A stretch of DNA of 32,201 nt. It comes from an uncultured Anaerolineaceae bacterium (lineage in GTDB: Bacteria; Chloroflexota; Anaerolineae; Anaerolineales; Anaerolineaceae). Shown here piece by piece: positions 599 to 32,201 of this stretch. The stretch is from positions 1 through 32,201 of the forward strand of contig CAYVRH010000001.1 in assembly GCA_964452955.1 (NCBI GenBank). Reading direction: 5' to 3'. A model generated the notes under the pieces. It was not told the DNA's origin. It ran no database searches and saw only the letters and a program-made list of their open reading frames with translations. Both the position numbers and the translations under genes were made by a program. Numbering within the stretch: the stretch's first letter is position 1; every line of letters begins with the position of its first letter.

Positions 599-599
599 G

Positions 600-674
600 T
601 CGGGGCAGGCGGATTCGAACCGCCGACCTCACAGTCCCGAACCGTGCGCTCTAGCCGGGCTGAGCCATGCCCCG
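600..674 (-). tRNA. tRNA-Pro, anticodon CGG; CCA not encoded
   Basis: The minus strand folds by hand into a cloverleaf: CGGGGCA UG GCUC AGCCCGGCUA GAGC G CACGG UUCGGGA CUGUG AGGUC GGCGG UUCGAAU CCGCC UGCCCCG A. It has a 7-bp acceptor stem, U8, GG in the D-loop, anticodon loop UU-CGG-GA with G37, a GGCGG/CCGCC T-stem with a UUCGAAU loop, and discriminator A. Confidence 0.95.
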
Positions 675-16300: not shown

Positions 16301-17689
16301 AACATCCGGAGCGCCTAATTCCAACAAACGCTTAAGGCGGTTGTTACGGTTGATCACACGGCGGTACAGGTCATTCAGATCAGAGGTAGCAAATCGACCG
16401 CCATCCAATTGAACCATGGGGCGTAAGTCAGGTGGAATCACAGGCAGAACGGTCAAGATCATCCATTCAGGACGGTTGCGTGAACGTCGGAAAGCTTCAA
16501 CAACCTTTAGACGCTGAGTAGCCTTCTTTCGCTTTTGTTTGCTCTTGGTGGTACGAGCTTCCTGCCAGAGATCCTCTGCCAGAGCATCCATATCGAGTCG
16601 TTTGAGGATGTCATAGAAAGCTTCCGCTCCCATGTCAGCCTTGAATACCTGGCCGTATTTGGATTTTAGATCACGATAATGCACTTCGCTTAAGAAGGTA
16701 AAGGGCTGAAGTTCGTATAACTCGTCGCGTTGACGGGCATTTTCCGTTTTTGTGGCGCCATTGTCTTCATCCAGCTGACCGCGAATGTCTTCCATGACAA
16801 TATCAGTCTTGGCTTTAATTTCGTCTTTTTGGATTTTGATGCCTTCCAGCTGACGGTTAAGCTCAACCTTCAGATCTTTTTCGAGGTCCTCGGTTAGTTC
16901 TTTTACGATTTTCTGAACTTTGTTAACGTGTTTATTGGCAACAATTTCTTCGGCCTCAACCACAGTCACATCGCCACTGTCGGCTTTGTAAACAATTGGT
17001 TTTCGGAATGATTTGCCAATCTTATCCTTGAGTTCTTGTTCGAGGCGCTGCCCTTCAGAAATCATAGGCTCAAACAGGGCCGCAGCTTTCTCATCGTATT
17101 CTTTCGTCAGCGCTTCAGCCTGGGCATCAAAATCTTTTAATTGACGATCACGCGCTTTTTTGACATCCGCGATCTGGGCATTAACTTTTTCGATTAATTC
17201 CCGTTCAGAAACGCTGATTTCATCATCCAGCCGTTTGAGGGCTTTTTGACGTGCATCTTCATCCACATAAGTCACGATGTACTGTGCAAAGTAGAGTACA
17301 CGGTCAAGGTTGCGGCGGGAGATATCCAGCAGGAGGCCTAAATAGGAAGGAATACGGCGGGTGTACCAAATATGTGCAACGGGAGCTGCAAGGTCAATAT
17401 GCCCCATACGCTCACGACGTACAGATGAACGGGTGACTTCCACACCACATTTGTCGCAGATAATTCCCTTATACCGAGGGTTTTTGTATTTGCCGCAGTA
17501 GCATTGCCAATCACGGGTGGGCCCAAAGATGGCTTCACAGAATAGACCGTCTTTTTCAGGTCGGAGACGGCGGTAGTTAATTGTTTCAGGTTTTAGAACT
17601 TCTCCATATGACCAGCTATGAATTGTTTCGGGGGATGCCAAATTGATGCGTAAGGCTTTCATTTCTTTAGTTTCCACTCGTACCTCCAA
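13343..17689 (-). CDS. rpoC: DNA-directed RNA polymerase subunit beta-prime, up to 1448 aa
   Basis: The Zn-binding [15 protein letters not shown] motif, the catalytic NADFDGDQM motif, the bridge helix and the trigger loop ([16 protein letters not shown], with no SI3-type insertion) are all present. The ORF-track start at 17689 is TTG and sits inside a GGAGGT. GTG 17677 (4 nt after GGAGGT) or ATG 17662 ([11 protein letters not shown]) may be the true start. Confidence 0.97.
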
Positions 17690-17713
17690 GTTACAGACGG
17701 TGAATTAATACGC

Positions 17714-17740
17714 AAAAAATCACCGAGAAAATGATCTCAG
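17714..17740 (-). promoter_or_regulatory. Possible hairpin plus U-tract in the rpoC 5' leader (attenuator-like, weak)
   Basis: The minus-strand RNA forms CUGAGA (17740-17735) paired with UCUCGG (17728-17723) around a 6-nt loop, then UGA and U6 (complement of A17714-A17719). The stem is only 6-7 bp including one G-U pair. Confidence 0.2.
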
Positions 17741-17781
17741 CCGATTTTTGGGGTTTTACCAGTTATTCCATGCAAACTATT

Positions 17782-17811
17782 ATTATATGTAATTATAGGA
17801 ACATTTGTCAA
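17782..17811 (-). promoter_or_regulatory. Sigma70-type promoter TTGACA-N18-TATAAT upstream of rpoC
   Basis: The minus strand has a perfect TTGACA (17811-17806), an 18-nt spacer and a perfect TATAAT (17787-17782). It lies in the 135-bp gap between the histidine-kinase stop (17825) and the rpoC start and predicts a ~90-nt leader. Confidence 0.55.
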
Positions 17812-17824
17812 GAAAAATGCTTGA

Positions 17825-20134
17825 TTAAAACAACGTTCTTAACGGAAGGATCAATGTAAAGGTACTTCCCTCACCCAGTTTACTTTGCAGCTCTATTCTA
17901 CCACCATGTTTTTCAGCCACTTCCCTGGCAATTGAAAGACCCAGCCCCTGGCCGCGCATCGAAAAACCGTTAGCTTCTTCAACGCGATAAAAGCGATTAA
18001 ATATTTTTTCCTTGTCCATGAGGCTGATACCTTTTCCGTAATCTTTTACCTGGATGTACGCAAAATCATCATCCTTGAAAGCCGAAATTTCTACAGAGGC
18101 ATCATGGTTGCTAAATTTAATCGCGTTGTCGATAATGTTAAACACCGCTTCCTGAAGAAGTACCCGATCTGCCTGGATAAAATCTGACTTTAATCCAGAA
18201 TAATCAGTGCGCAAAAGTAGTTTTTTCTGATTTGCCTGCAGTGCCAGAACAGAAATGACATCTTCAATCACCTTTCGAATGTCAACTGTATCCAGGCTAA
18301 GCGTTTGCCTGGCATCTAGTTGCTCAAGGCTCAAGAGTTTATGAGTAAGAATATCCATGGTATCCACATTGGCATGGATTTTTTCAAGATATTTCTGTTG
18401 TTCCGGTATCAGCTCCCCAAGGTTTTGCAGCAGTAATAAGTAACCCCGCATTAACTTAAGAGGCGACTGCAAGTCGTGGCTGATATTAGTCAGGAACTGA
18501 ACTTTTTGCTGATCCGTTTCAGATATTTCGGAAGCGTTAATAATCTGGATGACCTTACCCAGTTGGTCTTTGCCAGCCATGATTGGAAAGTAGTTGGCCT
18601 GGTAGAGATTGCTTGCCAATCTGAAGCTGAGCGAAGACGCTGAATCTGAGTTTTGAAGGGCAAAATTGAGGAATTCCTCATTTTCATGAATGCCCGGCAG
18701 GAATGTAAAGAGATTACCATATTGGTCAATGAGCGCATTTGCCCTCTGATTGGCAAATACTACTTTATTGGTCGTGTTGAGCACAAAATGAGCTTGTGGC
18801 AGAGAGTCGATTGCGCTGATCAGCCAGGCTCCCTGATCCGTTACCAAGTTGAGCCGCTCCACCGTGCGCAGCAGAATTGCTGCTCTTTGGCCGACAGCTT
18901 CGTAGAAGCCCGTTTCACGGCTGTTAAAGACATGATTTTCCTGAAAGCCCACCCAGAAAAGAGCTGTTTCTTTTTGAGAGATGTCGTATGTTTTGGCAAG
19001 TAACGATTTTGGCATCTGAAAATCATCGTTAATCCCAAAATACTGCTTTGCTTTGAGGTCGGTTAACATCAGCCTTTCGTCTTTATCAAGACGGTTGATA
19101 AGAATCGCATCCATTGGCGCGAAAATTTCACTCTTTTGGCCGGTAGAATATTTTTCCTTGACGGATGTTGAATTTTGAGCGGCATTCGTACTGTAAATAA
19201 GTAAGCGAGAAGAATCCGCTCCGTAAGCCAATGTAGTTTCCAATAAACTCTGCATAGCTACGTTTCGACTTTCGCTACTATCATCATTTATTTGGATGGA
19301 TAATGCTTTGTTTACCAGGTCCTGCCTGGAGGCTAATTCATCGCGCAAGTCTTTTATCCTGGAAAGTAACACTTCTTCTTGTAATGAAGTGACTTGAATT
19401 GGAGCCGGTAAATCCAAATGACCTTTGGCCAGACTTTCGATGGACCGATTGGCAAAATCAACCACTGCTTTTCTAGAACCTGTCGCCCGAATGAATTTGG
19501 ATGGCAACCACGCTAATGACGAAAACAGATTCACAGCATGGATCAAAAGAATTGACAAAATAAGGGCGGGCAGGCTTGAAATCCAGCTGTTCAAGCTAAA
19601 CTGGACAAGCGGAAATAGGTATCCATCCTTTTCCAGTAACTGCAAAAGGAGCTGAAAGATGAAAATTATAGGCAATAATTCCAAAAAACTAACAGTAAAT
19701 CGCAGTGTTAAACCAGATCGGTTGCCACGTTCTTCCGGTTTACTAAATTTTTGAGCCAGCAAAATCAAGAATGCCCATTGCGTGATAATCGCCAAAATAC
19801 TTTGACCATGCACAGCCATTTGAGTTAATCCAGCAACCAATCCGACAATCAAGGCAGGCAAAAGACCGACTAGTCCCAGGCTTAGAACCGCGGGAAGCAT
19901 GCCGAGTATTGAGAAAAATACTGGATTGGACTCAAATGAACCTGGGATGGCAGGCAACTGAAGTACCAGGTACAGAAAACGAGTAAACAGGAAGGCACTT
20001 GCGAGCAGAATAACAAAAAAGATCCCATTTTGGAGTGAAAGCCTGTTGGGTTGAGCCTGCAGTTTCCGAGTGTAAAAAAGGCTGATCAAGGCGGAAACGG
20101 TCAGAACGATGGCTTGACTCCAGGTAAGCTGCAT
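17825..20134 (-). CDS. Sensor histidine kinase with a polytopic N-terminal membrane domain, 769 aa; no response regulator in the window
   Basis: Residues ~1-215 form about six hydrophobic helices. A central ~330-aa cytoplasmic region looks GAF/PAS-like. The H-box is FLTNISHDLQSPLKLMRGY, the N-box is FNIIDNAIKFS, G1 is VKDYGKGI and G2 is GQGLGLSIAREVAEKHGGRI. Confidence 0.9.
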   Translation of the reverse strand: MQLTWSQAIVLTVSALISLFYTRKLQAQPNRLSLQNGIFFVILLASAFLFTRFLYLVLQLPAIPGSFESNPVFFSILGMLPAVLSLGLVGLLPALIVGLVAGLTQMAVHGQSILAIITQWAFLILLAQKFSKPEERGNRSGLTLRFTVSFLELLPIIFIFQLLLQLLEKDGYLFPLVQFSLNSWISSLPALILSILLIHAVNLFSSLAWLPSKFIRATGSRKAVVDFANRSIESLAKGHLDLPAPIQVTSLQEEVLLSRIKDLRDELASRQDLVNKALSIQINDDSSESRNVAMQSLLETTLAYGADSSRLLIYSTNAAQNSTSVKEKYSTGQKSEIFAPMDAILINRLDKDERLMLTDLKAKQYFGINDDFQMPKSLLAKTYDISQKETALFWVGFQENHVFNSRETGFYEAVGQRAAILLRTVERLNLVTDQGAWLISAIDSLPQAHFVLNTTNKVVFANQRANALIDQYGNLFTFLPGIHENEEFLNFALQNSDSASSLSFRLASNLYQANYFPIMAGKDQLGKVIQIINASEISETDQQKVQFLTNISHDLQSPLKLMRGYLLLLQNLGELIPEQQKYLEKIHANVDTMDILTHKLLSLEQLDARQTLSLDTVDIRKVIEDVISVLALQANQKKLLLRTDYSGLKSDFIQADRVLLQEAVFNIIDNAIKFSNHDASVEISAFKDDDFAYIQVKDYGKGISLMDKEKIFNRFYRVEEANGFSMRGQGLGLSIAREVAEKHGGRIELQSKLGEGSTFTLILPLRTLF

Positions 20135-20136
20135 GA

Positions 20137-20871
20137 CTAAGATCCTTCTTTAGGTCCTCTAAGCTTCAAAGTTTGTTTACGCTCACAGGTCTTATAGTAG
20201 TCGTAAATGACCTCAACTACCTCTTCAACATGGAGCGAATCCGTATCAATCACCAACGCGTCATCCGGAATTACCAGGGGAGCCGTTTTCCGATTGCTAT
20301 CTAATTCATCGCGATGTCTGATCGAATCCAAAACCTGCTGGTAAGTAATCTCCCGCTTCGCGGCTTGTTCTTCTGCAAAGCGACGTTCAGCCCTGACTTC
20401 CTGGGAAGCATCCAGGTAAATTTTACACGGGGCATCTGGTAGTACCACCGATCCGATATCCCTCCCCAGCATGACTATAGAACCTTTGGCGGCGATTTTT
20501 CGTTGTTGCTCGGTCATCGCTTTACGAACTTCCGGATAGGCCGAGACCTCGGAAACCAGGTTGTTCACCTCCGGCTGGCGAATCTGCCAGGTTGCGTCTT
20601 TACCGTCAATCAGGACGTCATTCATGCGGCCATCATCCGATGAAGGCGGCAAAATATCAATATCCACTTTCCAGGCTAAGGCGCTTACACTTGTTTCATC
20701 CCTGTAATCCAGGCCAGTCTGAATGACTACATAGGTGATGGCGCGATACATAATACCTGTATCAAAGCAAACGAACTTCAGCTTCTGAGCCAATTTTTGA
20801 CCGACCGTTGTTTTACCAACCGCCGCCGGGCCATCAATCGCTATCACCATTTTTGGTTTGATCTTTTTCAT
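20137..20871 (-). CDS. cmk: Cytidylate kinase, 244 aa
   Basis: The sequence contains VIAIDGPAAVGKTTVGQKLAQKL (P-loop), FDTGIMYRA and GRDIGSVVLPDA. GGGAGGAAA lies immediately upstream of the ATG. The ATG overlaps the upstream stop (ATGA at 20868-20871). Confidence 0.93.
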   Translation of the reverse strand: MKKIKPKMVIAIDGPAAVGKTTVGQKLAQKLKFVCFDTGIMYRAITYVVIQTGLDYRDETSVSALAWKVDIDILPPSSDDGRMNDVLIDGKDATWQIRQPEVNNLVSEVSAYPEVRKAMTEQQRKIAAKGSIVMLGRDIGSVVLPDAPCKIYLDASQEVRAERRFAEEQAAKREITYQQVLDSIRHRDELDSNRKTAPLVIPDDALVIDTDSLHVEEVVEVIYDYYKTCERKQTLKLRGPKEGS

Positions 20872-22529
20872 TTTCCTCCCGGAAAGAGGGATGTATTTAC
20901 CCAGAGCGTCTTTCGGATATCCACAGTCGGCAATGTTTTGGTTGCGATCATCTGCAGCAACTCAGCAAGAGCATTTTCAGATAGGTTCAAACGCCTGGCA
21001 TAAGTAATGGAAGTTCCCCTATAAGCAGACATCAAGCCGGATTCTGTCAGGCTGTCATTGACGACAAAACCTGGGAGGGGATCAGTCTTGGCTGAATCAG
21101 AATACGCTTTGAATTCCCAATAATCGCCTTTGCTAAGCACACCATCAATCGTGAAGCTATCGATATCAGGATTAATGGCATTGTTGGTTGAAAATACAGC
21201 CAATTCGGTAGAAGTAGGGCTTTCAGGGTAAAGAATTTCTGAATTGCTGAAAAGTAACTGGCTTACAGTGGCATTGTTCCAGGTTTGGGACAAAGAAAAG
21301 CCTAGTGAAAAAAGAGCGGCTACTACGAGAATGGCTGTCTGTAATGCGGGTTTGACCTCAGAAAAGCCCCAACCCAACCCGATCAGGATGTAACTGATCA
21401 AAATCAACCCCAATGCCAATAGCAATGGCAGCAGATCCATCGCGAAATTGAATTCTGATATTAGATTTCGAGCTAACTGGGTGAAGGTCAAAAGTGAAAA
21501 GATGAAGATCACCAGGAAGAAAACAAAAGATATCAAACTCACCGTGCTCACTTTAGCTGAAAGTGATTCTGATTGTGTGATCAGCAATGCAACCTGGATA
21601 ATTAAAAAGGCTTGCAAAAAGATGAATGATCCCGGGAGATAGCTCTGAAGGATTAAGCTCAACAGAAACAAACCAAGGAATATGCTTAGTCCTGATTTCC
21701 AAGAGAGAGAAGTGTTTCCAGATATGGCTCTTCCAAAAGGCAAAAGCAGATAGAGGCTGTAGGTCAGAAGAAGGAAGACCGGTAAAAACCAGAGAAGAGA
21801 TTGACCGCTTTGAATGGCAAACAAATCCACCAATCCGGAGCCAATTCCAGTCAAGCCAGCAGGATTTAGCAGGAAGGAAGTTGAAACAAGAACTCCGCTC
21901 AGCACTGCGCTGATAAAAAAGGATTTGCTCGGACTACAAAAGTCAAAAAGCCCTGAATGCATGGCCTTGCGTTTTGAAAAGTAGAGAAACAGACCAACCA
22001 AGCACATTAGAAAGAGAGCGATCCAGAAGTACTTTCCGGATAAGATTGCCAAGCCAAAGAGGATACCAGCTGCCACTTGTTTACGTTGATGAAGGAAAAC
22101 CAATAGCCAGGCAATAGTACTGGTTGCGAGTATGGGGCCATTGAGTTGTCGGGAGTAAATAAGAAAGATGGGGTCTAGGGCCAAAAGCAATGAAACCCCT
22201 AATAACGCGCTGGCGTTTTTATTTCTTAAGAGTGCGTATGGAATCAGCGTTAGTGAGGCACCAAATAGCGCTGGAATCAGCCTGGCAAAAAGATTACTTG
22301 TGGTACTAATCCAAAACAAAGCTCCTGTCAGCCCGGTGTATAAAGCAAGCGGGGATGAGCTGCTGGTTTGGTGCTTACTGATTTCGAGGGCTTGCCAGGC
22401 CAGATCAGCATCTGCCCTGGTGAATGGTACTGTGTCAGCTACCACTAAACGCAGAAACAAGGCAAATCCAAATATCACCAAGACTATGGGGAATATGTAA
22501 GGTTTGCGTGCCAAGCTTTGGCTATCCAT
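20868..22529 (-). CDS. Polytopic membrane protein, 553 aa, possible GT-C-type (PMT_2/ArnT-like) glycosyltransferase with a C-terminal extracytoplasmic domain
   Basis: About 12-14 hydrophobic helices span residues ~10-440. The first loop FLRLVVADTVPFTRADADLAWQAL resembles the ArnT/PMT N-terminal pattern, meaning a TM helix followed by an acidic loop. The C-terminal ~110 aa are soluble. The start overlaps the upstream stop (TAATG) and the stop overlaps the cmk start. The functional call is weak. Confidence 0.5.
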   Translation of the reverse strand: MDSQSLARKPYIFPIVLVIFGFALFLRLVVADTVPFTRADADLAWQALEISKHQTSSSSPLALYTGLTGALFWISTTSNLFARLIPALFGASLTLIPYALLRNKNASALLGVSLLLALDPIFLIYSRQLNGPILATSTIAWLLVFLHQRKQVAAGILFGLAILSGKYFWIALFLMCLVGLFLYFSKRKAMHSGLFDFCSPSKSFFISAVLSGVLVSTSFLLNPAGLTGIGSGLVDLFAIQSGQSLLWFLPVFLLLTYSLYLLLPFGRAISGNTSLSWKSGLSIFLGLFLLSLILQSYLPGSFIFLQAFLIIQVALLITQSESLSAKVSTVSLISFVFFLVIFIFSLLTFTQLARNLISEFNFAMDLLPLLLALGLILISYILIGLGWGFSEVKPALQTAILVVAALFSLGFSLSQTWNNATVSQLLFSNSEILYPESPTSTELAVFSTNNAINPDIDSFTIDGVLSKGDYWEFKAYSDSAKTDPLPGFVVNDSLTESGLMSAYRGTSITYARRLNLSENALAELLQMIATKTLPTVDIRKTLWVNTSLFPGGK

Positions 22530-25204
22530 TACCTAATACCTGCCATTTTGTTCTCAAAGATCCTGACGGAGTCATAATCAAATGCAAGCGCGAGGTGTTC
22601 ATTGAATTTCTGTTCATTAAGCTTATAGTTGCTCGCTTCAAGCGGCCCAACGTACACATAGCGAATATTATAGCGTGTGAGAATTTCAGCAGCCCGATCC
22701 CAATCAGCCGTAGAGTAGAGTACTTCCAAATCCTTGTACCGCGTGCCCATTTCAACGTCACCGCCACGCCATTGTGATTCGTGCCCAACCCAACCCAAGA
22801 CAGAGGGCATGCCGCTAAATGTCGACGCGTAATTAAAAGTGGAGTACTGCCCGCCATTGTTGGCTTCAGCCAAAACACCCAGAGGGGCTTTGCGAAGCCA
22901 CTTGACTGCTTCGATCTCATCGGCTTGTAGGACACTCTGCATACCGTCCAGAGATGGCAAGCTAATGCTACTGAAGCCGTTTGTCTTTTGCCAGGTCTGA
23001 ACTACCGGATAGATGAGCCCGGCAAGCAAACCAAAAATGATGAAGGCCGAAACTGCAGTTGTCCGATGCCGCTTTATCAAATTAACAACCATAACCAAAA
23101 CAAAAATTACTGGAATGGCTAACACCACGTAATCAAGCGGACTGCTCCCCAAGGGTCCGAGGTTTTGGTTCAAGGTGTTATAGATGACGTCATTACGGTA
23201 TATCCCCATGAATAAGGCGGCCACACCAAGCAAGAAGACCGATACTAAACTGAGGTTGCTAAATAGATTAGGTCGGCCTGCATTCCTTACCAAGCGGATG
23301 GTTGCGTAAGAAGCAACCAAAGACCACAAAATCCAAGCCTGAAAGTAGAACTTGAATATGGTGTTCATTCGATTCGCGAATTGATCTCTAAGAAATATGA
23401 ATTCAGGAATTAACGCAAAGAGTGCTCCCAGGAGGATCAGAAACAGCAAGAAAATTTCGGGGTGTGCTTTTGTCTCTGATTCTGCAATGACAGTTGGCTT
23501 GGCTAATATTTGCTGATTTCTGGCCAGAATTAACGCCAAAGCCAAAAAGATCATAACAGCGACGCTAAGTAATGTAAAAGGATCAGCTAATCTGGCTTGC
23601 AAGGCTAATTGCAGGGCTTCTTGGGCAGAACTTGCCCCTAAACGCATCAGCAAGGTTTGCCCTATCAAATCGATCGTGAGAACCAAGTAGCCAGCGCCCA
23701 AAGTGAATGCTAACCCGAGAACGCTAATTGCGATCGAAATCAGGCCAGCCTTGAGTACAGCCTTAAGGTCGAATTTTTTTATCAGACAATAGCTTAGATA
23801 CGCAAAAATTGCCAGCAACAGTGGTCCGAACATAACCCAAAAATACTTCCCAGCGGTAAAGAAACTAAAACTCGGTAGAATGCCTCCCGCCTGGGAACTG
23901 AAACTTAGAAAAAATGGTAAATAAAGCAGGATGCTGCCAATACCCAAACCAAGGCTAAGCTGTACAAACTGCCAGATACGTCCTCGCCATCCATGTTGAA
24001 GAAAAGAAAAATACACAATACTACACGCAACAAGCACGAGATAAAATGGAAAGTCCCAGGTATTTATGAAGGACAAGCCTCCAAGCGTGATAAGTCCAAT
24101 GGCAAGGTGAATCGGTTCAAGCTCCAGCGAACCAAACCAAGACCGCGCTTTTCCATGCCATCCGCCCAATAAGGCTTCGAAAGCCATTCCTATCGAAAGC
24201 AGGATGAAAGGCATATTCAGGATATGCGGATGGATATCCGCAAGTAAAAAGCTGAACGCGGGAAACTCATCGATAATCTCGATTGGTGAACCAGCAAAAT
24301 TGTGGTCAATCACCGTTCGCGAAGCTGCCCACCAGGTCCAACCTCCCCCACGTAATGGATACCAGGATAAGTTTTTAGGGGCTTCAGTCAACTCCCTCAG
24401 GTTAAGTTTGGACCAAAACTCGGACGCCAAATTACCAAGCCCGTCGTTTGAATAGAACAAGCCACGGCTGTGCAAGACATCAAAGAATCCATGCCAATTT
24501 GAAATTACCAGTAGCATCACAGGTGCCAGTATAGAGGTTCGATACACCCATTCAGGTATTTCATGTTTTACAGAATTCCTTCTGGAGCAAACCAGCAGGC
24601 TGAAAACAATTCCATAAGCCCCTAAAGCAGTCATGGCATACCAATAGGCGGCAATCAGGTTGTACCCAATCTCAGATGCTGTTCCCGTAATGCGGGTTAT
24701 CATGACACCCAGCAGATAGCCGAAATAGTAGTAAGAGATACTGTAGCCACTCAGCCAGGGATCCAGTGGTGGAAAGGATGGTGAGCGTCCGATGGCATTG
24801 ATAAAGGCCATCTCCATAAACTTCTCAGTATTGATGATTTCAGGATTGAACGCACGCAACAAAGCCATCAGGACAAATGCAATGAGAAAGACCCCTTCTG
24901 CCCAGAATATCAAGCGCTGAAAGCTTTTGATTTCATTCCAAATAGTTTGAAAACTGTCTTTCCTGGCCAGTAAAAAGTTAACCGCCAGTAAAATGCCTAA
25001 AGCTACCAATTGGCCTGAAACATCGTTGTGCAACAATCCGAGTGTAACCAACCACCAGAATAAAAACCCCCAAAGCAAGAGCCCCAATGGTTTGGCAAAA
25101 AAGTACCCCTTGCCCGGCAGGCGGCTGAACAATATCCGGCAGAGCGGTAAAGTAACCAAGCCAATTAAGATTGAGAATATCCACCATAAAACTGCCTGGA
25201 TCAT
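22529..25204 (-). CDS. DUF2298 / Chlor_Arch_YYY family integral membrane protein, 891 aa (908 aa if started at 25255)
   Basis: It is highly hydrophobic. The motifs are LPGKGYFFAKPLG, NTEKFMEMAFINA, YYYFG (24719-24733), EFPAFSFLLADIHPH (ADIHPH at 24224-24241), NTWDF (24050-24064) and RMNTIFKFYFQAWILWSLV. The C-terminal soluble domain has VLGWVGHESQWRG and IRYVYVGPLE. I prefer ATG 25204 because it forms an ATGA overlap with the upstream stop. Confidence 0.75.
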   Translation of the reverse strand: MIQAVLWWIFSILIGLVTLPLCRILFSRLPGKGYFFAKPLGLLLWGFLFWWLVTLGLLHNDVSGQLVALGILLAVNFLLARKDSFQTIWNEIKSFQRLIFWAEGVFLIAFVLMALLRAFNPEIINTEKFMEMAFINAIGRSPSFPPLDPWLSGYSISYYYFGYLLGVMITRITGTASEIGYNLIAAYWYAMTALGAYGIVFSLLVCSRRNSVKHEIPEWVYRTSILAPVMLLVISNWHGFFDVLHSRGLFYSNDGLGNLASEFWSKLNLRELTEAPKNLSWYPLRGGGWTWWAASRTVIDHNFAGSPIEIIDEFPAFSFLLADIHPHILNMPFILLSIGMAFEALLGGWHGKARSWFGSLELEPIHLAIGLITLGGLSFINTWDFPFYLVLVACSIVYFSFLQHGWRGRIWQFVQLSLGLGIGSILLYLPFFLSFSSQAGGILPSFSFFTAGKYFWVMFGPLLLAIFAYLSYCLIKKFDLKAVLKAGLISIAISVLGLAFTLGAGYLVLTIDLIGQTLLMRLGASSAQEALQLALQARLADPFTLLSVAVMIFLALALILARNQQILAKPTVIAESETKAHPEIFLLFLILLGALFALIPEFIFLRDQFANRMNTIFKFYFQAWILWSLVASYATIRLVRNAGRPNLFSNLSLVSVFLLGVAALFMGIYRNDVIYNTLNQNLGPLGSSPLDYVVLAIPVIFVLVMVVNLIKRHRTTAVSAFIIFGLLAGLIYPVVQTWQKTNGFSSISLPSLDGMQSVLQADEIEAVKWLRKAPLGVLAEANNGGQYSTFNYASTFSGMPSVLGWVGHESQWRGGDVEMGTRYKDLEVLYSTADWDRAAEILTRYNIRYVYVGPLEASNYKLNEQKFNEHLALAFDYDSVRIFENKMAGIR

Positions 25205-28200
25205 GGTTTCACCTGATAAATACTGGTTTGTCCCGAACTGAACACTTTGTCCCAAAGCAAGCTATCATATTGAGCAAATTTTTCCAACCCAGTGGCTGGA
25301 TAGAAGCGGGCTTCCAATTGTCCAACGACAATATAAGCCACCTTATATTCCTCTAGAAATTGCTTTATAAAGTCCAGATCAGATGTATTGTAAAACGCAT
25401 TGACTGAGTCCACTCGTTCTTGAACACGATTATCCGCCAGAACCGCGTGCTGTTGACGTTGGTGATAATTCCAACCCACTACACCGGGAAGCCCAGTATA
25501 GATGGTAAAGCGGTTACCCCAGCGATATTCATAGGCCTGGCCTTCCAGAATGACCGGGGAACCTTTTACGTTTTCCTGCATCCAAAGGATGGCTTCATAA
25601 TCTTCCTCCAAGTTCATCGCTTGAACTTGTTGCGGGCGTTGGGGGTCCAAATTACCTGGTTCGATATAGCTCGAAGTTTTCATAAAGGCCATCCCATCCA
25701 GTGTGTGTGGAGCATTTCTATCCATACGGTCAGTCATTTTGTCTATGCCTGCCATAATAGGGAAAAAGGCAGCCCCAGCCAATAAGAGGATGAGCGCAAG
25801 TTCAAATAACTGCTGAAATGGCGGCTTCCATTTTTTATGTGCTTTCCATACCAGCATTATGGCAGGTCCAGCGACTAAGGAAAGCAAAATCCAAGCCTGT
25901 AAATAAAGTTTGAAAACAGAATTCTGACGGCCATTATCGCCTTCAGGCCAGATAAGCTCAACAAAAATGGTAAGAAGGAAGGCCGTACCAATGATAAAGT
26001 AAGTTATTCTATTGGAATCTGATTTTTCTTCAGTAATCAAAAGAAAGAGCGCAAGCAAGCAGATGGGGAAAGCATATACAGCCACAACCACTTTCATTAA
26101 TAGCAAAGCCACAAAAGTAAATCCGAGAAATACGCTGGCGATAATTATTTTGTCTTTGTGAGCTGCATACTTTTCTAAGGTAGAAATTCTTGTCTTCTTC
26201 AGCCAGATGTATAGCTGCCACATGAGAAATGCCGCGATAACAAACAGGAATACACCCCAGTGCCCTGTGAAAGATTTCAATGGAGTGCGAGCCCCTTCCC
26301 ATAACGCCACCTTATTGTATCCAGGGCGGAAAAGGTCATTAAAAGGCTTGTACATTACAACGCTTAGCGCGAATAACGATATCGCCGAAATAAGGGCGGG
26401 AAGATAACGCGTGAGTTTCAGCCAACCTGGTTTGATTGGGGGCATATAGCGCAGACCAGTGTACAAAACCACTGCTATAGCAAGTAATGGATAGGTGTAA
26501 AAATCCCAGGTATTGATAGGTTTTAAGGAACCCAATACCAAGCCGCCCAAACCAAAGACCGCGACCATTTTGAAAATGCGTTGTTTTAAGTTCTCTCCAA
26601 AATTCATGCGGGTTTGCAGGAATGAGAGTGCCCAGGCTACCGCCAGAATGGCCACAGGCATAACCATCAAATGGGCATGCAGATCCGCGTACAAAAACGT
26701 GAACATGGGGAATTCAGTGATTGGTTCTCCAGGGATCATGCGGCTGGGTATCCAGTACCAATCCCCCGGGTATAGCGGCAAAGGTGTTTTTTGCAGATAC
26801 TTGATAAGCCCTGAGAAAAAGAAACCAACTTTTTGAAAATATGTTGCCACTGCCAGGTCCGCGCCAGCGGCGCCCAGCTTCTCAAGAGTCTCTTTGAATA
26901 GCCGTATTGCCCCCAGGTTGCCCAGAAAAGCCAGTAATAATGCGGACCAAATGCCTGCCCAGAAAGGCTGGCCGAATAACCTGAATTGCGGCGCTTCCCT
27001 GAGCATACTCTTCAGCAGATTCCAACCAATGCTATAGGCTCCAATGAACACAAGCGCGTACCAGATGGGCAGAATGATGTTATATGCAATGGATGGCACA
27101 ATCCCCAAAAGCTTCACGGGCATCGCCAGGATTACAAAGCCGTAATAGTAATAATTGATGAAATCACCAGCAAACCAAGGGTTATAGGCTGGGAAGATAC
27201 TGCTTTTGAGAACAGCATTGAAGAACGAGAAATCCATCGGTTTCTCGCCACCTTTCCAGGGGTGCCACAAATCCGGGTTCTGATAGCGCACATACAGGAA
27301 AAATGCAAATGCGAGAAGAGAAAGTACTTCTATGAGAAGATATTGCTTCCACAAAAGTTTCAGGTCAGCTAGGAGAGCTTTGCGGGTCAAAAAGGCAGTG
27401 ATGAGATTGATGAAGATAATAATGATCAAAACCAGCAAAATGGTGGTTTTTGTTGCCTGAATTCCGTAATTACCAGCGATGAAAACAAGGTACGCCAGCC
27501 CCAGCAGTGCCGAAATCTTTGAAAACGCGAATCCCTTATCCTTTAAACCGCCCAATGCCAGGCGAATAACAGGGAAATTCAGCCATCCGAACAGGGTGAT
27601 GAAAAGGTAGAGAACAGCTGCGCCAAGGAAGGGTGTACGATTTAATGGGTTTTCCCGGTCAAAAAGTTCATTCCATGTGCCCCCCTCTGTCTGCGTTTGC
27701 AGTTCCTGGGGCGTCAATCGCAGTTGGCTTTGCGGGGTATCGGCAGATTTGAAAGTGTCGGCTTGTTTGGCGGTAATATTGACCACTTTTCCAAGATCGA
27801 CTTGCGCAAAAAGGGCTTTTACCTGATCGAGATTGAAGTTCTCATTTTTACGAAAAACAAGTGTCTTTGGGTGATCATAGACAGAAAATGCCTCTTCAGC
27901 ATACTGGTCATTGAACCTTAAATTGCCTAAATTGGGATAGGAGGTGCCCACATAAACAAGGTCAAAACCCAACCTGCCCAAATTGGAACCCAACTCAGCA
28001 TCGTTATAACAACGCACGATGTCTGTGCCGTCTTCGCAACCCATTAGCTCCTCATAAAACATGGTTGCGAGAGGGTAGCGTTCAGGCACCCGAACAGTCG
28101 TTCCCCAAACCCGGTTGGAACTCATCAGAATGTAATCGCTAAAATTGAGATTATCGAGCATGCGATCCAGTTTGTTCTGATCTTCAGCCCAATATAACTC

Positions 28201-30459
28201 CAGGTTTTTACCTTGGTAGGTGCCGTAAGTATCGCCATAAGGAATGTATCCCACGCGGGAAACAGGCAGTGCATCATCCCAACTGGTCTCAAGCAGGTTC
28301 ACTGGGGCGCTGATGCCAAGGGAACCCTCACCTCTGGTGAGCGCAATTTCAAGCAAAAGCTCCTGCTGGTCCTTTACCTCTAATGCGGGAGAAAAAGTAA
28401 CAACATATCTGTCTCCTGCTCCGTTCTTTGTCTTGAGAAAATCACTTTCAAGCGTTCCCAAACTTACCTGCTCAGGTGTGTTGAGAACGGATAGCCTGAA
28501 ATCGAGCTTTTTACTTGTTGGATTCTGTGAATAGTCCAATAGATGTGGAATTTCAAGTTCCGTGATCGCGCCAATCCCAGTCGTTGAAAACCTGATTTGT
28601 TGAGCGGCGCCAACTCTTATTTGCGCGGTAATGCGAGGAAGGCTAATGGTATGGAAACTGCCATCACTTCTTGGGAAAGAAAGCTGCGGCTCACCCTGGA
28701 AATGTGTCATCGATTGTGGGGCAACCGCTCTAATTTCAAATAGGTAAGTCTCGCCCTTCTCAAAGGGATATAGCGGTAGTTTGAATGACAGTTTACTGGG
28801 AGAGTTTTCATTCTCAGAATACAGTTGAGCTTTTACAGCAGGTCCTAATGTTTGTCTGCCACCGTTGATGAGGAAGACCTCCAGCGTGTAGAGCGAGTTT
28901 TCCTTTAAATTGGCTTCATCCGAAACATTTGGAAGAGTGAGTGAATCCAAATTCTCATTGTCCGATGACTGATAGACAAGATATAAAGGCTCAGTACCTT
29001 GCAAAATTGCGTCCGCTGGGTAGGAGACAGGCAGCTTTTTGATACCTTCGGTAGTTTCATTTGTAAGGGTCAAAGCACCAGGGAGATTCTGGTAGATCCA
29101 TTCGCTGGTGCTAACCCTCGTGAAATCCCTGCTATAGATGCGCGTGAAGGCATATGCCCAGGCCACTGTACCAAGCAAGCCAAGCACGGCCAGCACCCGA
29201 ACCAGCCAAAGCCAAATGGGTGACTGTCCGAATTTCAGGTCTCTCTTCTTCGAAAAAACCTGCACCAATACCCAGGATGCTGAAAGTGCCAGTAGAGGGT
29301 AAATCAGCAGGTAATAGCGCATGGAAGAGGTCCATGAAAGCGATTGCCAGAGGAAATATAGCAATGTCCAAACAATGATTGGAAAATAGAAATAGGTTCG
29401 GCGCTTGATGTTTGTATATAGTTGCCCAAGCAAACCCAACACCGCCAAAACCGCGAAGGGAATTCCCATGCCCCAAACGGCAAGATTGTAGGGGCCAAAG
29501 AAAAATGAACGGCGTGCCCATTGCAGGGCAGGAGGAGAATCAGACAAACCCTTGGACGCTGCTGAAAGCTCCTGCATATTGGAAAGCCATTTCGGATTCA
29601 GGCTGAAATTGAAGAAACTAGGTCCGGTAAATGCATAAGGTTGAAGAACCCGGAATGTAATGAAACTAATGACGCCTGCCAGAGCCATTAAACCAAAGCT
29701 GCGCCAGTATCCATCCACTTCAAGATTCTGAGATTTTGCCTTGAGATACCTTACATAGAGAATTACCGGCAAAAGCAAGGCCAGCGTTACTGCGTTGGCC
29801 TTGGAGGCTGTGGCCATGCCCAGTGCCAAACCGAAAAAGATAAACAACCAAAGCTCTCGTCCACTTACTTTACGTGTTGTAGATAGCGGCGGCAGCATCT
29901 GGATTAAGACACCTGCGTAAATAGTCAGTAAACCAAATGTATTGGTGAAGGTGTCTACCGTCATGAAGTGGGCTTGTTGAATCGGTACAACGCTTAAAGC
30001 ATAGAAGGCTGCTGCTCCAAGCCCCAACCAATCGTTCCAAAGCTTTTTGCCAATAAAAAAGAGCAGAACGATTGTGGTGAGTTCAGTCAGTACGGAGAGC
30101 TGCCTGCCAAGCATTGTAATTGGGTCATAACCGGTCTGCTGCGTAAATTCGCCAATATAGCGGATAATGAATACTGGCAGCGTTCCGTAAACAAAAAAAC
30201 CATAACCTTGATTATGCGGGTTCAACGTGGAAGTTTCAGTATTGAAGTAGTCCTTGAGAGAGTTTACAGGCTGAATGCTGCTCTCCACCATCGATAGAAA
30301 CCGTTCATCCGGGTGCAGATGGGTGCCCATATCCCATTTCAGGTTATAGCTGCGCAATAAGAATCCAACCAAAAGGATAGAAACAAAAATCACCAGTTTT
30401 AGTGATTGTCTCAGCGCAGTTGGCTCAGGCTTTGGGCTAGGTAGTTTGGAACTATCCAT
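25201..30459 (-). CDS. Giant two-module integral membrane protein, 1752 aa. It has an N-terminal GT-C-like module, a ~500-aa extracytoplasmic region, and a C-terminal DUF2298/Chlor_Arch_YYY module with its soluble domain.
   Basis: Module 1 (aa ~60-490 of the track ORF) has HPDERF (30298-30315) in its first loop and GFFVYG (FFVYG at 30184-30198). Residues 492-988 are hydrophilic and beta-rich. Module 2 has LKDKGFAFSKISA, GGEKPMDFSFFNA, YYYYG (27139-27153), EFPMFTFLYADLHAH (26671-26688), NTWDF (26500-26514) and RQNSVFKLYLQAWILLSLV. The C-terminal domain has VVGWNYHQRQQ and VAYIVVGQLE. I trimmed the start from 30597 to ATG 30459 (MDSSKLPSPKPEP), 13 nt after the methyltransferase stop. Confidence 0.75.
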   Translation of the reverse strand: MDSSKLPSPKPEPTALRQSLKLVIFVSILLVGFLLRSYNLKWDMGTHLHPDERFLSMVESSIQPVNSLKDYFNTETSTLNPHNQGYGFFVYGTLPVFIIRYIGEFTQQTGYDPITMLGRQLSVLTELTTIVLLFFIGKKLWNDWLGLGAAAFYALSVVPIQQAHFMTVDTFTNTFGLLTIYAGVLIQMLPPLSTTRKVSGRELWLFIFFGLALGMATASKANAVTLALLLPVILYVRYLKAKSQNLEVDGYWRSFGLMALAGVISFITFRVLQPYAFTGPSFFNFSLNPKWLSNMQELSAASKGLSDSPPALQWARRSFFFGPYNLAVWGMGIPFAVLAVLGLLGQLYTNIKRRTYFYFPIIVWTLLYFLWQSLSWTSSMRYYLLIYPLLALSASWVLVQVFSKKRDLKFGQSPIWLWLVRVLAVLGLLGTVAWAYAFTRIYSRDFTRVSTSEWIYQNLPGALTLTNETTEGIKKLPVSYPADAILQGTEPLYLVYQSSDNENLDSLTLPNVSDEANLKENSLYTLEVFLINGGRQTLGPAVKAQLYSENENSPSKLSFKLPLYPFEKGETYLFEIRAVAPQSMTHFQGEPQLSFPRSDGSFHTISLPRITAQIRVGAAQQIRFSTTGIGAITELEIPHLLDYSQNPTSKKLDFRLSVLNTPEQVSLGTLESDFLKTKNGAGDRYVVTFSPALEVKDQQELLLEIALTRGEGSLGISAPVNLLETSWDDALPVSRVGYIPYGDTYGTYQGKNLELYWAEDQNKLDRMLDNLNFSDYILMSSNRVWGTTVRVPERYPLATMFYEELMGCEDGTDIVRCYNDAELGSNLGRLGFDLVYVGTSYPNLGNLRFNDQYAEEAFSVYDHPKTLVFRKNENFNLDQVKALFAQVDLGKVVNITAKQADTFKSADTPQSQLRLTPQELQTQTEGGTWNELFDRENPLNRTPFLGAAVLYLFITLFGWLNFPVIRLALGGLKDKGFAFSKISALLGLAYLVFIAGNYGIQATKTTILLVLIIIIFINLITAFLTRKALLADLKLLWKQYLLIEVLSLLAFAFFLYVRYQNPDLWHPWKGGEKPMDFSFFNAVLKSSIFPAYNPWFAGDFINYYYYGFVILAMPVKLLGIVPSIAYNIILPIWYALVFIGAYSIGWNLLKSMLREAPQFRLFGQPFWAGIWSALLLAFLGNLGAIRLFKETLEKLGAAGADLAVATYFQKVGFFFSGLIKYLQKTPLPLYPGDWYWIPSRMIPGEPITEFPMFTFLYADLHAHLMVMPVAILAVAWALSFLQTRMNFGENLKQRIFKMVAVFGLGGLVLGSLKPINTWDFYTYPLLAIAVVLYTGLRYMPPIKPGWLKLTRYLPALISAISLFALSVVMYKPFNDLFRPGYNKVALWEGARTPLKSFTGHWGVFLFVIAAFLMWQLYIWLKKTRISTLEKYAAHKDKIIIASVFLGFTFVALLLMKVVVAVYAFPICLLALFLLITEEKSDSNRITYFIIGTAFLLTIFVELIWPEGDNGRQNSVFKLYLQAWILLSLVAGPAIMLVWKAHKKWKPPFQQLFELALILLLAGAAFFPIMAGIDKMTDRMDRNAPHTLDGMAFMKTSSYIEPGNLDPQRPQQVQAMNLEEDYEAILWMQENVKGSPVILEGQAYEYRWGNRFTIYTGLPGVVGWNYHQRQQHAVLADNRVQERVDSVNAFYNTSDLDFIKQFLEEYKVAYIVVGQLEARFYPATGLEKFAQYDSLLWDKVFSSGQTSIYQVKP

Positions 30460-30472
30460 AATGACGCAAGTG

Positions 30473-31273
30473 TTATTTTGTGGCGATAAAGAATGTTTCT
30501 GTTCCGTCTTCGCAATACGGATTCTCAACCAATTGTCGGACTTTCCTAAAAGGTATAAATGGATTTTTAGCCGATGGAAAAAGGATCCATTTGCCAAATA
30601 CTTTCTTGTAAAACAAAGTCAGGATGCCAAATAAGTGGCCGCGTTCCAGCATATGTAATGCCCAAACGGGAAAGTAGTTAAACGATTCTACGTTCGTAAA
30701 GCCTGCTTCCAACAGCCTGGCTTTCCATGTTTCAGGTGTATCCAGATTGACATGCCTGGATATTTTGTTGAAAAATTTTGAGTAAGCTTTAGCCAACTTG
30801 TGTAAACCGATTTTCTGTAATACTTTCATCCCCCAAAGTTCAGTTTTGAACCGCGCATTGGGCACCGCGAAGTAGAACTTACCACCTGGAGCCAGGCAGC
30901 GATGTACATCATTCAGCACATATTGCACATTGGGTATATGTTCAAGGACTGAATTCGAAATCGCAGTTGGAAAGGAATCTTCGGGTACGGGTATCTGGTC
31001 ACCCATTCCTTGGACGAGCAAGCCATAAACCTGGCGCTTGCCCGCTTCCTGTAAGGGTTCCCACCAGGGATCGATACCAAACATGGTTTTCTTTTTCAGT
31101 AAAGCCTGGGCAAAATGGCCGTCCCCCGCGCCAATATCCAAAACAGGTTCTGCCAGGTCTTGCTCTTCGTAAAATCGTTGTTCACAAGCCCGCAGCATAC
31201 CCCGGAAATAGGGCATGCTAAAAAGTTGGCGTCTGCAGATTTGATTCAGTTCCTTTGAATTCAAAGTCACCAT
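30473..31273 (-). CDS. Class I SAM-dependent methyltransferase, 266 aa
   Basis: Motif I is VLDIGAGDGHF. The post-I acidic residue lies in FGIDP. The sequence also contains SNSVLEHIPN and LAPGGKFYFAVPN (Methyltransf_11-like). Confidence 0.85.
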   Translation of the reverse strand: MVTLNSKELNQICRRQLFSMPYFRGMLRACEQRFYEEQDLAEPVLDIGAGDGHFAQALLKKKTMFGIDPWWEPLQEAGKRQVYGLLVQGMGDQIPVPEDSFPTAISNSVLEHIPNVQYVLNDVHRCLAPGGKFYFAVPNARFKTELWGMKVLQKIGLHKLAKAYSKFFNKISRHVNLDTPETWKARLLEAGFTNVESFNYFPVWALHMLERGHLFGILTLFYKKVFGKWILFPSAKNPFIPFRKVRQLVENPYCEDGTETFFIATK

Positions 31274-31278
31274 AAGCG

Positions 31279-32201
31279 TTATATTTTGAATAACTCCAGG
31301 TATTTTTTTGCCACAACTTCTTCACTGAATTCGTTGAGATAGTCAGTCTCGACGTGATAAGCGATTTTGCCTTTTTCAAGAACTTGAATGATCTTCTCTG
31401 CTAAATCGTGCGCGTTGGCAGCTTTAAAGAGCGCTCCTGCACCTGTTTGCGTAACTGGTACGCGAATTCCGGGGGAATCGGAAGCCACCACTGGAGTTCC
31501 CTGCGCGAAAGCTTCGATTTGCACCATGCCAAAAGCCTCGGTTCGATTAGTGCTCGAAACTACCAGCACATCACAAACCGCAAAGAAAGCCTGCAATTCT
31601 TCTTCAGACAGGAATCCCAATTTTTTCCAGTAAGCCGCCTGTGGTTTTATCAAGTTGTCGATGTAAGCCTGGTAAGCTTCCTCACCAACAACACCTTTCC
31701 ACGAGCCGGCATGCAAAACCATCACGTCAGGAAACATTTTGCGGATTTCGGGTAAGGCTTGAACCAGGATTTCATATCCCTTTTCGGAGGCAACCCGCCC
31801 GGATAGCCCGATATAGCGATGATTCTGATCCAAAGCGAACTTCTCACGTAATTGCACAATCGCTTCTTCTTTTACTGGTCGGGGGTTCACCGGCGGCCAG
31901 ACCACTTTTACCTTATCCAGTATGCCTTCAAGTGCAGGGGAGCTATTGGCATAATCCTGGGCTAGTGCGGCAATTGCGTCTGCTTTTTTGAGGGCTAGAC
32001 TATGCAGCCAACGGGTCCCAAGGTAAGGCAGCTGGGAGATAAAATGGCCTTCCTTTTCAAGATCACATTGGTAAGTGACAATAAGACGTTTGCCTTGTAC
32101 CTTAGCCATGGCAGCCAACTGGGCAGATTCAAACTGAGGCAAATGCAAATTCACCACATCCGCCCATTTAATCCAGGGTTTTGCTACTTTGCCCAATCCC
32201 A
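31279..32201 (-). CDS. Glycosyltransferase family 4 (GT-B, Glycos_transf_1); the N-terminus lies beyond the right window edge
   Basis: The C-terminal Rossmann half contains GRVASEKGYEILVQAL, LHAGS and the E-x7-E motif TEAFGMVQIEAFAQGTPVV. The ORF-track 'M' at 32196 is a TTG. The frame stays open to position 32201, so the gene is 5'-truncated by the window. Confidence 0.85.
   Translation of the reverse strand, partial: GLGKVAKPWIKWADVVNLHLPQFESAQLAAMAKVQGKRLIVTYQCDLEKEGHFISQLPYLGTRWLHSLALKKADAIAALAQDYANSSPALEGILDKVKVVWPPVNPRPVKEEAIVQLREKFALDQNHRYIGLSGRVASEKGYEILVQALPEIRKMFPDVMVLHAGSWKGVVGEEAYQAYIDNLIKPQAAYWKKLGFLSEEELQAFFAVCDVLVVSSTNRTEAFGMVQIEAFAQGTPVVASDSPGIRVPVTQTGAGALFKAANAHDLAEKIIQVLEKGKIAYHVETDYLNEFSEEVVAKKYLELFKI

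Follow-up and report, generated by a model that had tools for sequence, protein, structure and literature searches.

The first 32,201 nucleotides of contig CAYVRH010000001.1 (GenBank assembly GCA_964452955.1), from an uncultured Anaerolineaceae bacterium and referred to here as the window, carry a tightly packed row of genes for a cytoplasmic glycosyltransferase, a methyltransferase and three large polytopic membrane proteins, a candidate system for assembling a glycan on the outer face of the cell. The features were read on the minus strand, and a longer contig (L001) carries identical genes together with the upstream flank. The row comprises, from its upstream end:

L001:1759-2790, outside the window, upstream of position 32201: flippase-like gene of the PF03706/TIGR00374 family (PplT, UPF0104), 343 amino acids (aa), directly following lepA
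31279 to the window end (32201), minus strand: glycosyltransferase of family 4 (GT4), C-terminal 305 of 379 codons inside the window
30473-31273, minus strand: S-adenosylmethionine (SAM)-dependent methyltransferase, 266 aa
25201-30459, minus strand: giant protein, 1752 aa, ATG start at 30459
22529-25204, minus strand: 891-aa protein, DUF2298/Chlor_Arch_YYY
20868-22529, minus strand: 553-aa polytopic protein without a Pfam family
20137-20871, minus strand: cmk, (d)CMP kinase, 244 aa
17825-20134, minus strand: membrane sensor histidine kinase, 769 aa, the final co-directional gene of the row

Read directly from the sequence, the GT4 stop is separated from the methyltransferase start by 5 nt and the methyltransferase stop from the start of the giant by 13 nt. 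The giant and 891-aa genes are joined by an ATGA overlap (25201-25204), the 891-aa and 553-aa genes by a TAATG overlap (22527-22531) and the 553-aa gene and cmk by a second ATGA overlap (20868-20871), while 2 nt separate cmk from the histidine kinase gene. On L001 lepA directly abuts the PF03706 gene (0 nt), and an ATGA overlap links the PF03706 gene to the GT4 start. Because the PF03706 gene and lepA lie upstream beyond the window, the row starts outside it. The three membrane proteins together account for 1752 + 891 + 553 = 3196 codons. Every gene length and junction listed in a first-pass annotation of the window, made from its letters, was reproduced by this reading. The tight spacing to which the same annotation pointed is not specific to the glycosylation genes, since equal packing extends to lepA, cmk and the histidine kinase gene. 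As the packing includes genes of unrelated function, it supports co-transcription of a long row and not a common function.

TIGR03662 describes hydrophobic proteins or modules 700-900 residues long that bear a YYYxG motif. All three membrane proteins had initially been placed in this family and in Pfam DUF2298 (PF10060), an assignment that stands for the 891-aa protein and the C-terminal half of the giant, both of which score above cutoff, and falls for the 553-aa protein and the N-terminal half of the giant. The 891-aa protein reaches 442 bits with TIGR03662 (cutoff 300.25) and 330.5 bits with PF10060 (cutoff 27.8). Its motif, S157-Y158-Y159-Y160-F-G162, is invariant in 38 homologs, and the YYYxG motif is also found in a Firmicute DUF2298 homolog. 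The family is large, with more than 4,600 homologs at E<=1e-10 among 8,000 candidates. A DUF2298 profile produced chance-level matches only against PDB sequences, and our literature search found no paper characterising DUF2298/TIGR03662 and none on glycosyltransferases of the C fold (GT-C) in Chloroflexi, in agreement with the first-pass statement that no member is known to have been characterised biochemically; two papers were found to name the family without studying it.

An AlphaFold2 model of the 891-aa protein (predicted local distance difference test score, pLDDT, 84.3; predicted template modelling score, pTM, 0.91) contains ~18 transmembrane helices followed by a C-terminal alpha/beta domain (residues 741-891). 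When the model was compared with the PDB using Foldseek, the sole significant transmembrane matches were chains of AftA (8if8; E 1.7e-4 and 1.2e-3, probability 1.0, template modelling (TM) scores 0.28-0.40), and the C-terminal domain matched its globular counterpart in AglB-S2 (3vu0; probability 1.0, TMt ~0.5). The AftA paper describes a mycobacterial priming arabinosyltransferase with extra N-terminal helices ahead of the GT-C core, a catalytic acid and an adjacent charged residue in a first long outer loop made of two short helices, and an alpha/beta C-terminal domain common to AglB, PglB, ArnT and AftD, whatever the acceptor. The layout described for AftA is the one shown by the predicted 891-aa structure.

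The 18-helix assignment of this model places 12 Lys and Arg among 70 residues in the short inner loops, compared with 5 among 102 in the short outer loops. Under this predicted topology no invariant polar loop residue lies in an inner loop; all are in outer loops or belong to the C-terminal domain, which is likewise outside. A core set is common to the 891-aa protein, the giant C-terminal module and the distant Firmicute DUF2298 protein, comprising E127-K128-x-M-[E/D]131, W150, YYY158-160, E313, D323-x-H325-x-H327, N381-x-W383-D384, R612, N614, K618, W805 and H808. An active site open to the outside would be expected to show such a pattern. DUF2298 is likely, although not established, to belong to the GT-C superfamily.

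The giant protein is a fusion of three parts:

29050-30459, minus strand: residues 1 to ~470, PMT_2/PMT-like GT-C module, identified by its motif and by the PF13231/PF02366 matches of homologs
27640-29049, minus strand: residues ~471-940, soluble region without a known family
25201-27639, minus strand: residues 941-1752, DUF2298/Chlor_Arch_YYY module with a C-terminal soluble domain

The N-terminal module of the giant itself scores 18.4 bits with PMT_2 (PF13231), under the gathering cutoff of 26.1; its N-terminal part (940 aa) had no match to TIGR03663 at E<=0.01 and none among PDB sequences. Most full-length homologs (~1600 aa) carry precomputed PF13231 and/or PF02366 matches together with PF10060. 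In an alignment of 41 giant sequences, W42, D43 and H49-P50-D51-E52-R53, which follow the first transmembrane helix, were at least 95% conserved, and by sequence the HPDER loop corresponds to the 'DE' loop that characterises PMT/ArnT-type GT-C enzymes. Profile comparison with hhalign paired residues 114-240 of the giant with residues 78-185 of the 553 family at 29% probability. At the other end of the protein, residues 944-1751 score 457.5 bits with TIGR03662 (cutoff 300.25) and 338.7 bits with PF10060 (cutoff 27.8), and the residues of the YYYxG motif (Y1103-Y1104-Y1105-x-G1107) are conserved in the 41-sequence alignment. This module aligns with the 891-aa family at an hhalign probability of 100% (E 3e-128), and by sequence the two are paralogs.

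The soluble region between the two modules of the giant is variable in its first half and strongly conserved in its second, with the pattern N-E-S-W-D-D ... P-E-R-Y-P ... two Cys ... A-E-E-A-F-x-V-Y-D-H-P-K. It had no match in Pfam, in NCBIfam or, searched as a profile, among PDB sequences; a weak ILEI match (E 0.004) in the soluble region of two of ten giant homologs was not relied on. Kyte-Doolittle prediction overlooked helices in the giant. Fusion through assembly error was considered and rejected, as intact related assemblies contain a single open reading frame (ORF) of 1600-1850 aa. Since the giant joins a PMT_2-like GT-C module and a DUF2298 module, with a soluble domain between them, the GT-C-like modules of the locus number four and fall into three types.

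The 553-aa protein returned no Pfam match in a profile search, and its match to TIGR03663 was confined to residues 15-163 at 19.5 bits, short of the cutoff of 126.25. Having no DUF2298 match, it is not a member of TIGR03662/PF10060. An AlphaFold2 model built from a 30-sequence alignment (pLDDT 85.5, pTM 0.85) was nearest in the PDB to ArnT (5f15; E 1.6e-5, TM-score 0.49). Further Foldseek matches were to ALG9, STT3 (of the yeast and human oligosaccharyltransferases), EmbC, Pmt1/Pmt2, Pmt4 and AftD, and all matches with a probability of at least 0.9 were GT-C enzymes. The sequence profile of the family reaches PIG-M at E 0.0027, and R27, E/D40, R83, D119 and R127 are near-invariant, E/D40 lying in the loop that follows the first helix. 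Although the family is extensive (1510 clusters at E<=1e-30 and 5467 at E<=1e-3 in a library clustered at 50% identity), PMT or PMT_2 in Pfam was reached by 2 of 50 sampled members. The idea that the membrane proteins are of GT-C type, already raised in the first-pass annotation, is thus upheld at the level of the fold for the 553-aa protein and less firmly for DUF2298, through the AftA match (TM-scores 0.28-0.40). All module types carry an acidic residue in the first long loop (D51-E52 in the giant N-terminal module, E/D40 in the 553 family, E127 and E/D131 in DUF2298), and charge bias supports its outward placement in the 891-aa protein.

Both cytoplasmic genes belong to the families to which they had been assigned. 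The GT4 portion inside the window matches PF00534 (98 bits) and PF13692 (77.6 bits), and the complete 379-aa protein (L001:2787-3926) matches PF00534 (97.5 bits), PF13439 (52.4 bits) and also PF13579, so that both halves of the GT-B fold are above cutoff. No NCBIfam equivalog reached its cutoff for this protein; it weakly matches the model for N-acetylglucosaminyl-phosphatidylglycerol (GlcNAc-PG) synthase at E ~1e-12, far under the cutoff. The class I SAM-dependent methyltransferase matches PF13489 (72.5 bits) and PF08241 (55.6 bits), with NCBIfam matches that are sub-threshold only. The flippase-like protein encoded upstream scores 135 bits with PF03706 (cutoff 33.4) and 88.4 bits with TIGR00374 (cutoff 43.2).

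Species-representative genomes, when scanned, yielded 80 related loci, all from Anaerolineae and including those of the cultured Ornatilinea apprima and Bellilinea caldifistulae; the counts that follow take in only loci with enough flanking sequence. The giant gene lies directly upstream of an 891-type gene in 54 of 55 loci, and under strict criteria a 553-type gene follows the 891-type gene in 59 of 69, most of the remainder being contig ends, frameshifted assemblies or start-codon calls. GT4 is found upstream of the giant in 48/51 loci and the methyltransferase in 38/51, which upholds the predicted linkage to GT4 and tailoring enzymes across Anaerolineae. A PplT-type gene precedes GT4 in 16/20 loci, and cmk follows the 553-type gene in 47/55. 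Within this frame an FkbM-type methyltransferase has been added in many lineages, and Anaerolinea-type loci have, in place of the methyltransferase gene, one for an NDP-sugar epimerase/dehydratase, which lies between GT4 and the flippase-like gene. There is room for one more gene between GT4/methyltransferase and the giant in 43 of the 51 loci, the lineage of the window being without it. In every locus checked, this extra gene, between the methyltransferase and the giant, encodes a PMT_2 GT-C protein of ~700-770 aa:

L005:2648-4732; L009:3072-5237; L070:3387-5588; L079:3257-5341: extra PMT_2 GT-C gene (PMT_2 26.5-36 bits, cutoff 26.1)

That sugar-tailoring genes are swapped while the frame stays fixed is the strongest argument for one pathway. 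On L079, an Anaerolineales chromosome, the cmk link has been lost, yet GT4, methyltransferase and PplT-type genes still adjoin the GT-C array. As a separate observation, the 553-type gene of L079 is followed (14898-18350) by a gene for a 1150-aa protein that combines a PMT_2 GT-C domain with a C-terminal NHL-repeat beta-propeller.

In the synthesis of phosphatidylinositol mannosides (PIM), lipomannan (LM) and lipoarabinomannan (LAM), a cytoplasmic GT4 enzyme acts on a membrane lipid, the product is flipped and polytopic GT-C enzymes extend it outside. The mycobacterial and corynebacterial PIM/LM/LAM and arabinogalactan pathways (PimA/PimB, PimE, MptA/B, EmbC, AftA-D) have a logic equal to the one proposed below. 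AftA, the best structural match of the DUF2298 model, shares with it the extra N-terminal helices, the acid in the first long outer loop and the alpha/beta C-terminal domain. However, there is no detectable sequence homology to those pathways, the phylum is another one, and here a PF03706 gene is linked and two GT-C modules are fused in a 1752-aa chain.

A second precedent is provided by two operons that encode a GT4 enzyme together with a predicted UPF0104/PF03706 flippase, as the row does: gpgSDF, which makes glucosaminyl-phosphatidylglycerol (GlcN-PG) in P. aeruginosa, and hexSDF, which makes an aminohexosyl glycolipid in C. difficile. The row differs from both in lacking a deacetylase, in place of which it has a methyltransferase or epimerase, and in continuing into four GT-C modules. 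PplT domains fused to GT-B glycosyltransferases are also known from Chloroflexi, among other phyla. In Archaea, UPF0104 genes (arCOG00899) neighbour genes for an AglD-like glycosyltransferase and a PMT/STT3-like protein (Makarova et al. 2015, PMC5898192), the same trio of flippase-like protein, cytoplasmic glycosyltransferase and polytopic PMT/STT3-like protein. The archaeal glycosyltransferase is of the GT2 family (AglD-like), whereas that of the row is GT4, and DUF2298 is not in the described neighbourhood. In the three-component GT-C systems (GtrA/GtrB/GtrC, ArnC/ArnEF/ArnT, CsbB/GtcA/YfhO; PMC11127046), a polytopic GT-C protein is presumed to act outside with a polyprenyl-phosphate sugar, and the 553-aa model is nearest to ArnT. 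These systems have one GT-C module and not several; in addition, neither a GT2 polyprenyl-phosphate sugar synthase nor a small GtrA-type flippase was present in the window, on L001 or in the related loci inspected.

A further likeness is to the TIGR03662 and TIGR03663 pairs of Archaea and Chloroflexota, as the row contains two true TIGR03662 modules with PMT-like polytopic partners, once as a fusion, which parallels the pairing given in the database descriptions; the partners here, however, miss the TIGR03663 cutoff. TIGR03663, which the first-pass annotation had treated as uncharacterised, is named Agl23 in NCBIfam. It is described as flippase-associated and not as a transferase, its member HhAgl23 reportedly translocates M5GN2-PP-Dol in proteoliposomes, and this archaeal partner family is linked to N- and O-glycosylation in Haloarcula.

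Outside Anaerolineae, plasmid pNP95 of Pseudobutyrivibrio xylanivorans encodes a DUF2298 protein (307 bits) within a polysaccharide cluster that also contains wecB, two GT2 genes (310-320 aa), a GtrII-type GT-C gene, a gene for a Wzy_C/O-antigen-ligase-family protein, a DegT aminotransferase gene and genes for sugar epimerases/dehydratases. The sole archaeal DUF2298 match, in a Halarchaeum record of the plasmid collection where the gene spans the record origin, had uninformative neighbours.

We favour, with moderate confidence, the view that this conserved part of the core genome encodes an assembly line with which Anaerolineae build an extracytoplasmic glycoconjugate of their envelope. The product is most likely a lipid-anchored glycan (lipoglycan) or a wall polysaccharide, which would make the process a formal analogue of mycobacterial PIM/LM/LAM synthesis. 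In the first step GT4 would place a nucleotide-activated sugar on a membrane lipid at the inner face. The SAM methyltransferase would then tailor the intermediate, a role that would fall elsewhere to an FkbM-type methyltransferase or an NDP-sugar epimerase/dehydratase. The PF03706/TIGR00374 PplT protein would move the glycolipid to the outer leaflet, as suggested by gpgSDF and hexSDF. Finally, four GT-C-type modules (the PMT_2-like N-terminal module of the giant, its C-terminal DUF2298 module, the 891-aa DUF2298 protein and the ArnT-like 553-aa protein) would extend or transfer the glycan outside, using polyprenyl-phosphate sugars made elsewhere in the genome. In each of these modules the conserved acidic and basic residues would face outward, and a soluble domain on the same side would hold the acceptor. 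An extracytoplasmic glycosylation system had been proposed from the sequence of the window alone; the family memberships, folds, conserved motifs and gene order, with the predicted topology of the 891-aa protein, support this in part, and catalytic activity, donors, acceptor, product and a single pathway for all of the genes are inferred.

Several observations weigh against this assembly line. Tight gene spacing is not peculiar to the glycosylation genes. The conserved gene order is limited to one class and extends to lepA, cmk, the kinase gene and rpoC, so the conservation may in part reflect phylogenetic inertia. No GT2-type polyprenyl-phosphate sugar synthase was found in the window or in the examined 10-kb flanks. 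On the structural side, the global TM-scores between DUF2298 and AftA are low (0.29/0.40, with a root-mean-square deviation of 16 Å) and no further GT-C structure was listed, profile-profile comparison with hhalign finds no link between DUF2298 and either the giant N-terminal module or the 553 family, and helix assignment for the 553-aa protein showed no charge bias. Lastly, six Firmicute-like metagenome loci with DUF2298 have mixed neighbourhoods, in which 48 neighbouring proteins include two GT2 and two Wzy_C proteins; a universal tie of DUF2298 to glycan genes is accordingly not claimed.

A bolder form of the assembly-line proposal, which we offer tentatively and would not ourselves expect to hold in full, is that DUF2298 is a previously unrecognised active GT-C family, fused or arrayed with PMT_2-like modules into a machine with multiple active sites. 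Starting from a methylated glycolipid primer that GT4 and the methyltransferase make and PplT flips, this machine would polymerise an envelope lipoglycan that defines the class, forming a Chloroflexota counterpart of mycobacterial LM/LAM built from different families.

The acceptor might instead be protein, with the same GT-C enzymes glycosylating S-layer or secreted proteins through O- or N-linkages in the manner of PMT or AglB and the GT4, methyltransferase and flippase-like genes supplying a lipid-linked donor. The giant N-terminal module and the 553 family are indeed nearest to PMT/PMT_2, the 553-aa model also matches STT3 and Pmt1/2, and the Haloarcula link of TIGR03663 points the same way. 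The match of the DUF2298 C-terminal domain to that of AglB would also fit; however, according to the AftA paper such domains are common to many GT-C enzymes whatever the acceptor, and in its transmembrane part DUF2298 best matches AftA, a polysaccharide arabinosyltransferase. Moreover, no WWDYG-type or DK/MI motif was identified, no gene for an acceptor protein is linked to the locus, and GT4 and UPF0104 pairs have so far been documented for glycolipids. We consider protein glycosylation unlikely.

Somewhat less probable again is that two unrelated functions adjoin, in which case the PF03706, GT4 and methyltransferase genes would make and flip a free, possibly methylated glycolipid, the large membrane proteins would act separately, and the gene order would reflect core synteny from lepA to rpoC. 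GT4 and UPF0104 operons do operate without a GT-C partner, the synteny and tight spacing embrace lepA, cmk, the histidine kinase gene and rpoC as well, and all 80 related loci come from one class. Against this, the place between GT4 and the giant is exactly where various lineages have gained or swapped tailoring genes and the extra PMT_2 GT-C gene, L079 keeps GT4, methyltransferase and PplT-type genes beside the GT-C array despite its broken cmk link, and archaea have an analogous neighbourhood of UPF0104, glycosyltransferase and GT-C genes. That the DUF2298 modules are non-catalytic partners, either scaffolds or translocators/scramblases of lipid-linked sugars as claimed for Agl23, with catalysis confined to the PMT_2-like modules, is very improbable: the activity reported for HhAgl23, a member of the co-occurring TIGR03663, and the weak TM-scores to GT-C structures would allow it, but the dense invariant acidic, His and basic residues, all on the outer side and shared from Anaerolineae to Firmicutes, fit an active site better than a translocation path, and a GT-C-type C-terminal domain is present.

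The cmk product matches TIGR00017 at 230.5 bits (cutoff 135.55), and cmk is probably a housekeeping passenger that is translationally coupled to the 553-aa gene. The histidine kinase has HisKA and HATPase_c matches and a membrane/sensor region of ~430 residues without a Pfam match; its gene adjoins cmk in most related loci, where the protein is often longer (~1100 aa). Within the row, a scan found consensus promoter and terminator matches to be no commoner than in shuffled sequence, and Rfam and tRNA scans detected no RNA gene in the region. The sole perfect TTGACA-18-TATAAT site (a 12/12 match in 15 kb) lies after the row at 17782-17811 on the minus strand, upstream of rpoC, in the 135-nt spacer from the histidine kinase gene to rpoC. 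A terminator-like hairpin at 17722-17741 is located 3′ of this site, inside the rpoC leader.

Two further features were noted elsewhere in the window. The uvrC gene (3495-5352, plus strand) is split into an ORF at 3495-3983 (GIY-YIG) and an ORF at 4063-5352 (UVR, RNase H-like and HhH), and three-frame translation places the shift of the UvrC frame from 0 (...TLDVLR) to +1 (IPYLTCAREITGKDERACLYY...) at ~3936-3940. As read from the sequence, the break fits a 1-nt insertion, which may be an assembly error or a real pseudogene. A tRNA-Pro gene (CGG; 599-674, minus strand) was the sole RNA gene detected in the window by the Rfam and tRNA scans.

Much of what underlies the proposal is already known, as the families are catalogued in Pfam and NCBIfam and the logic of cytoplasmic transferase, flippase and GT-C enzyme introduces no new principle. 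Three elements are apparently new within the literature searched: the probable GT-C fold of DUF2298 with its defined set of outward motifs, the finding that the 553-aa proteins form a large GT-C family that Pfam does not detect, and the class-wide frame of flippase-like gene, GT4, tailoring enzyme and four-module GT-C array. The envelope chemistry of Chloroflexota is poorly known, and DUF2298/TIGR03662 is a large family without an assigned function. The hypothesis is concrete and testable down to individual residues, and the gene frame occurs in cultured Ornatilinea apprima and Bellilinea caldifistulae, from which the product could be isolated. If true, it would add a family to the GT-C superfamily and reveal which enzymes make a major surface polymer of organisms that are abundant in anaerobic digesters and sediments.

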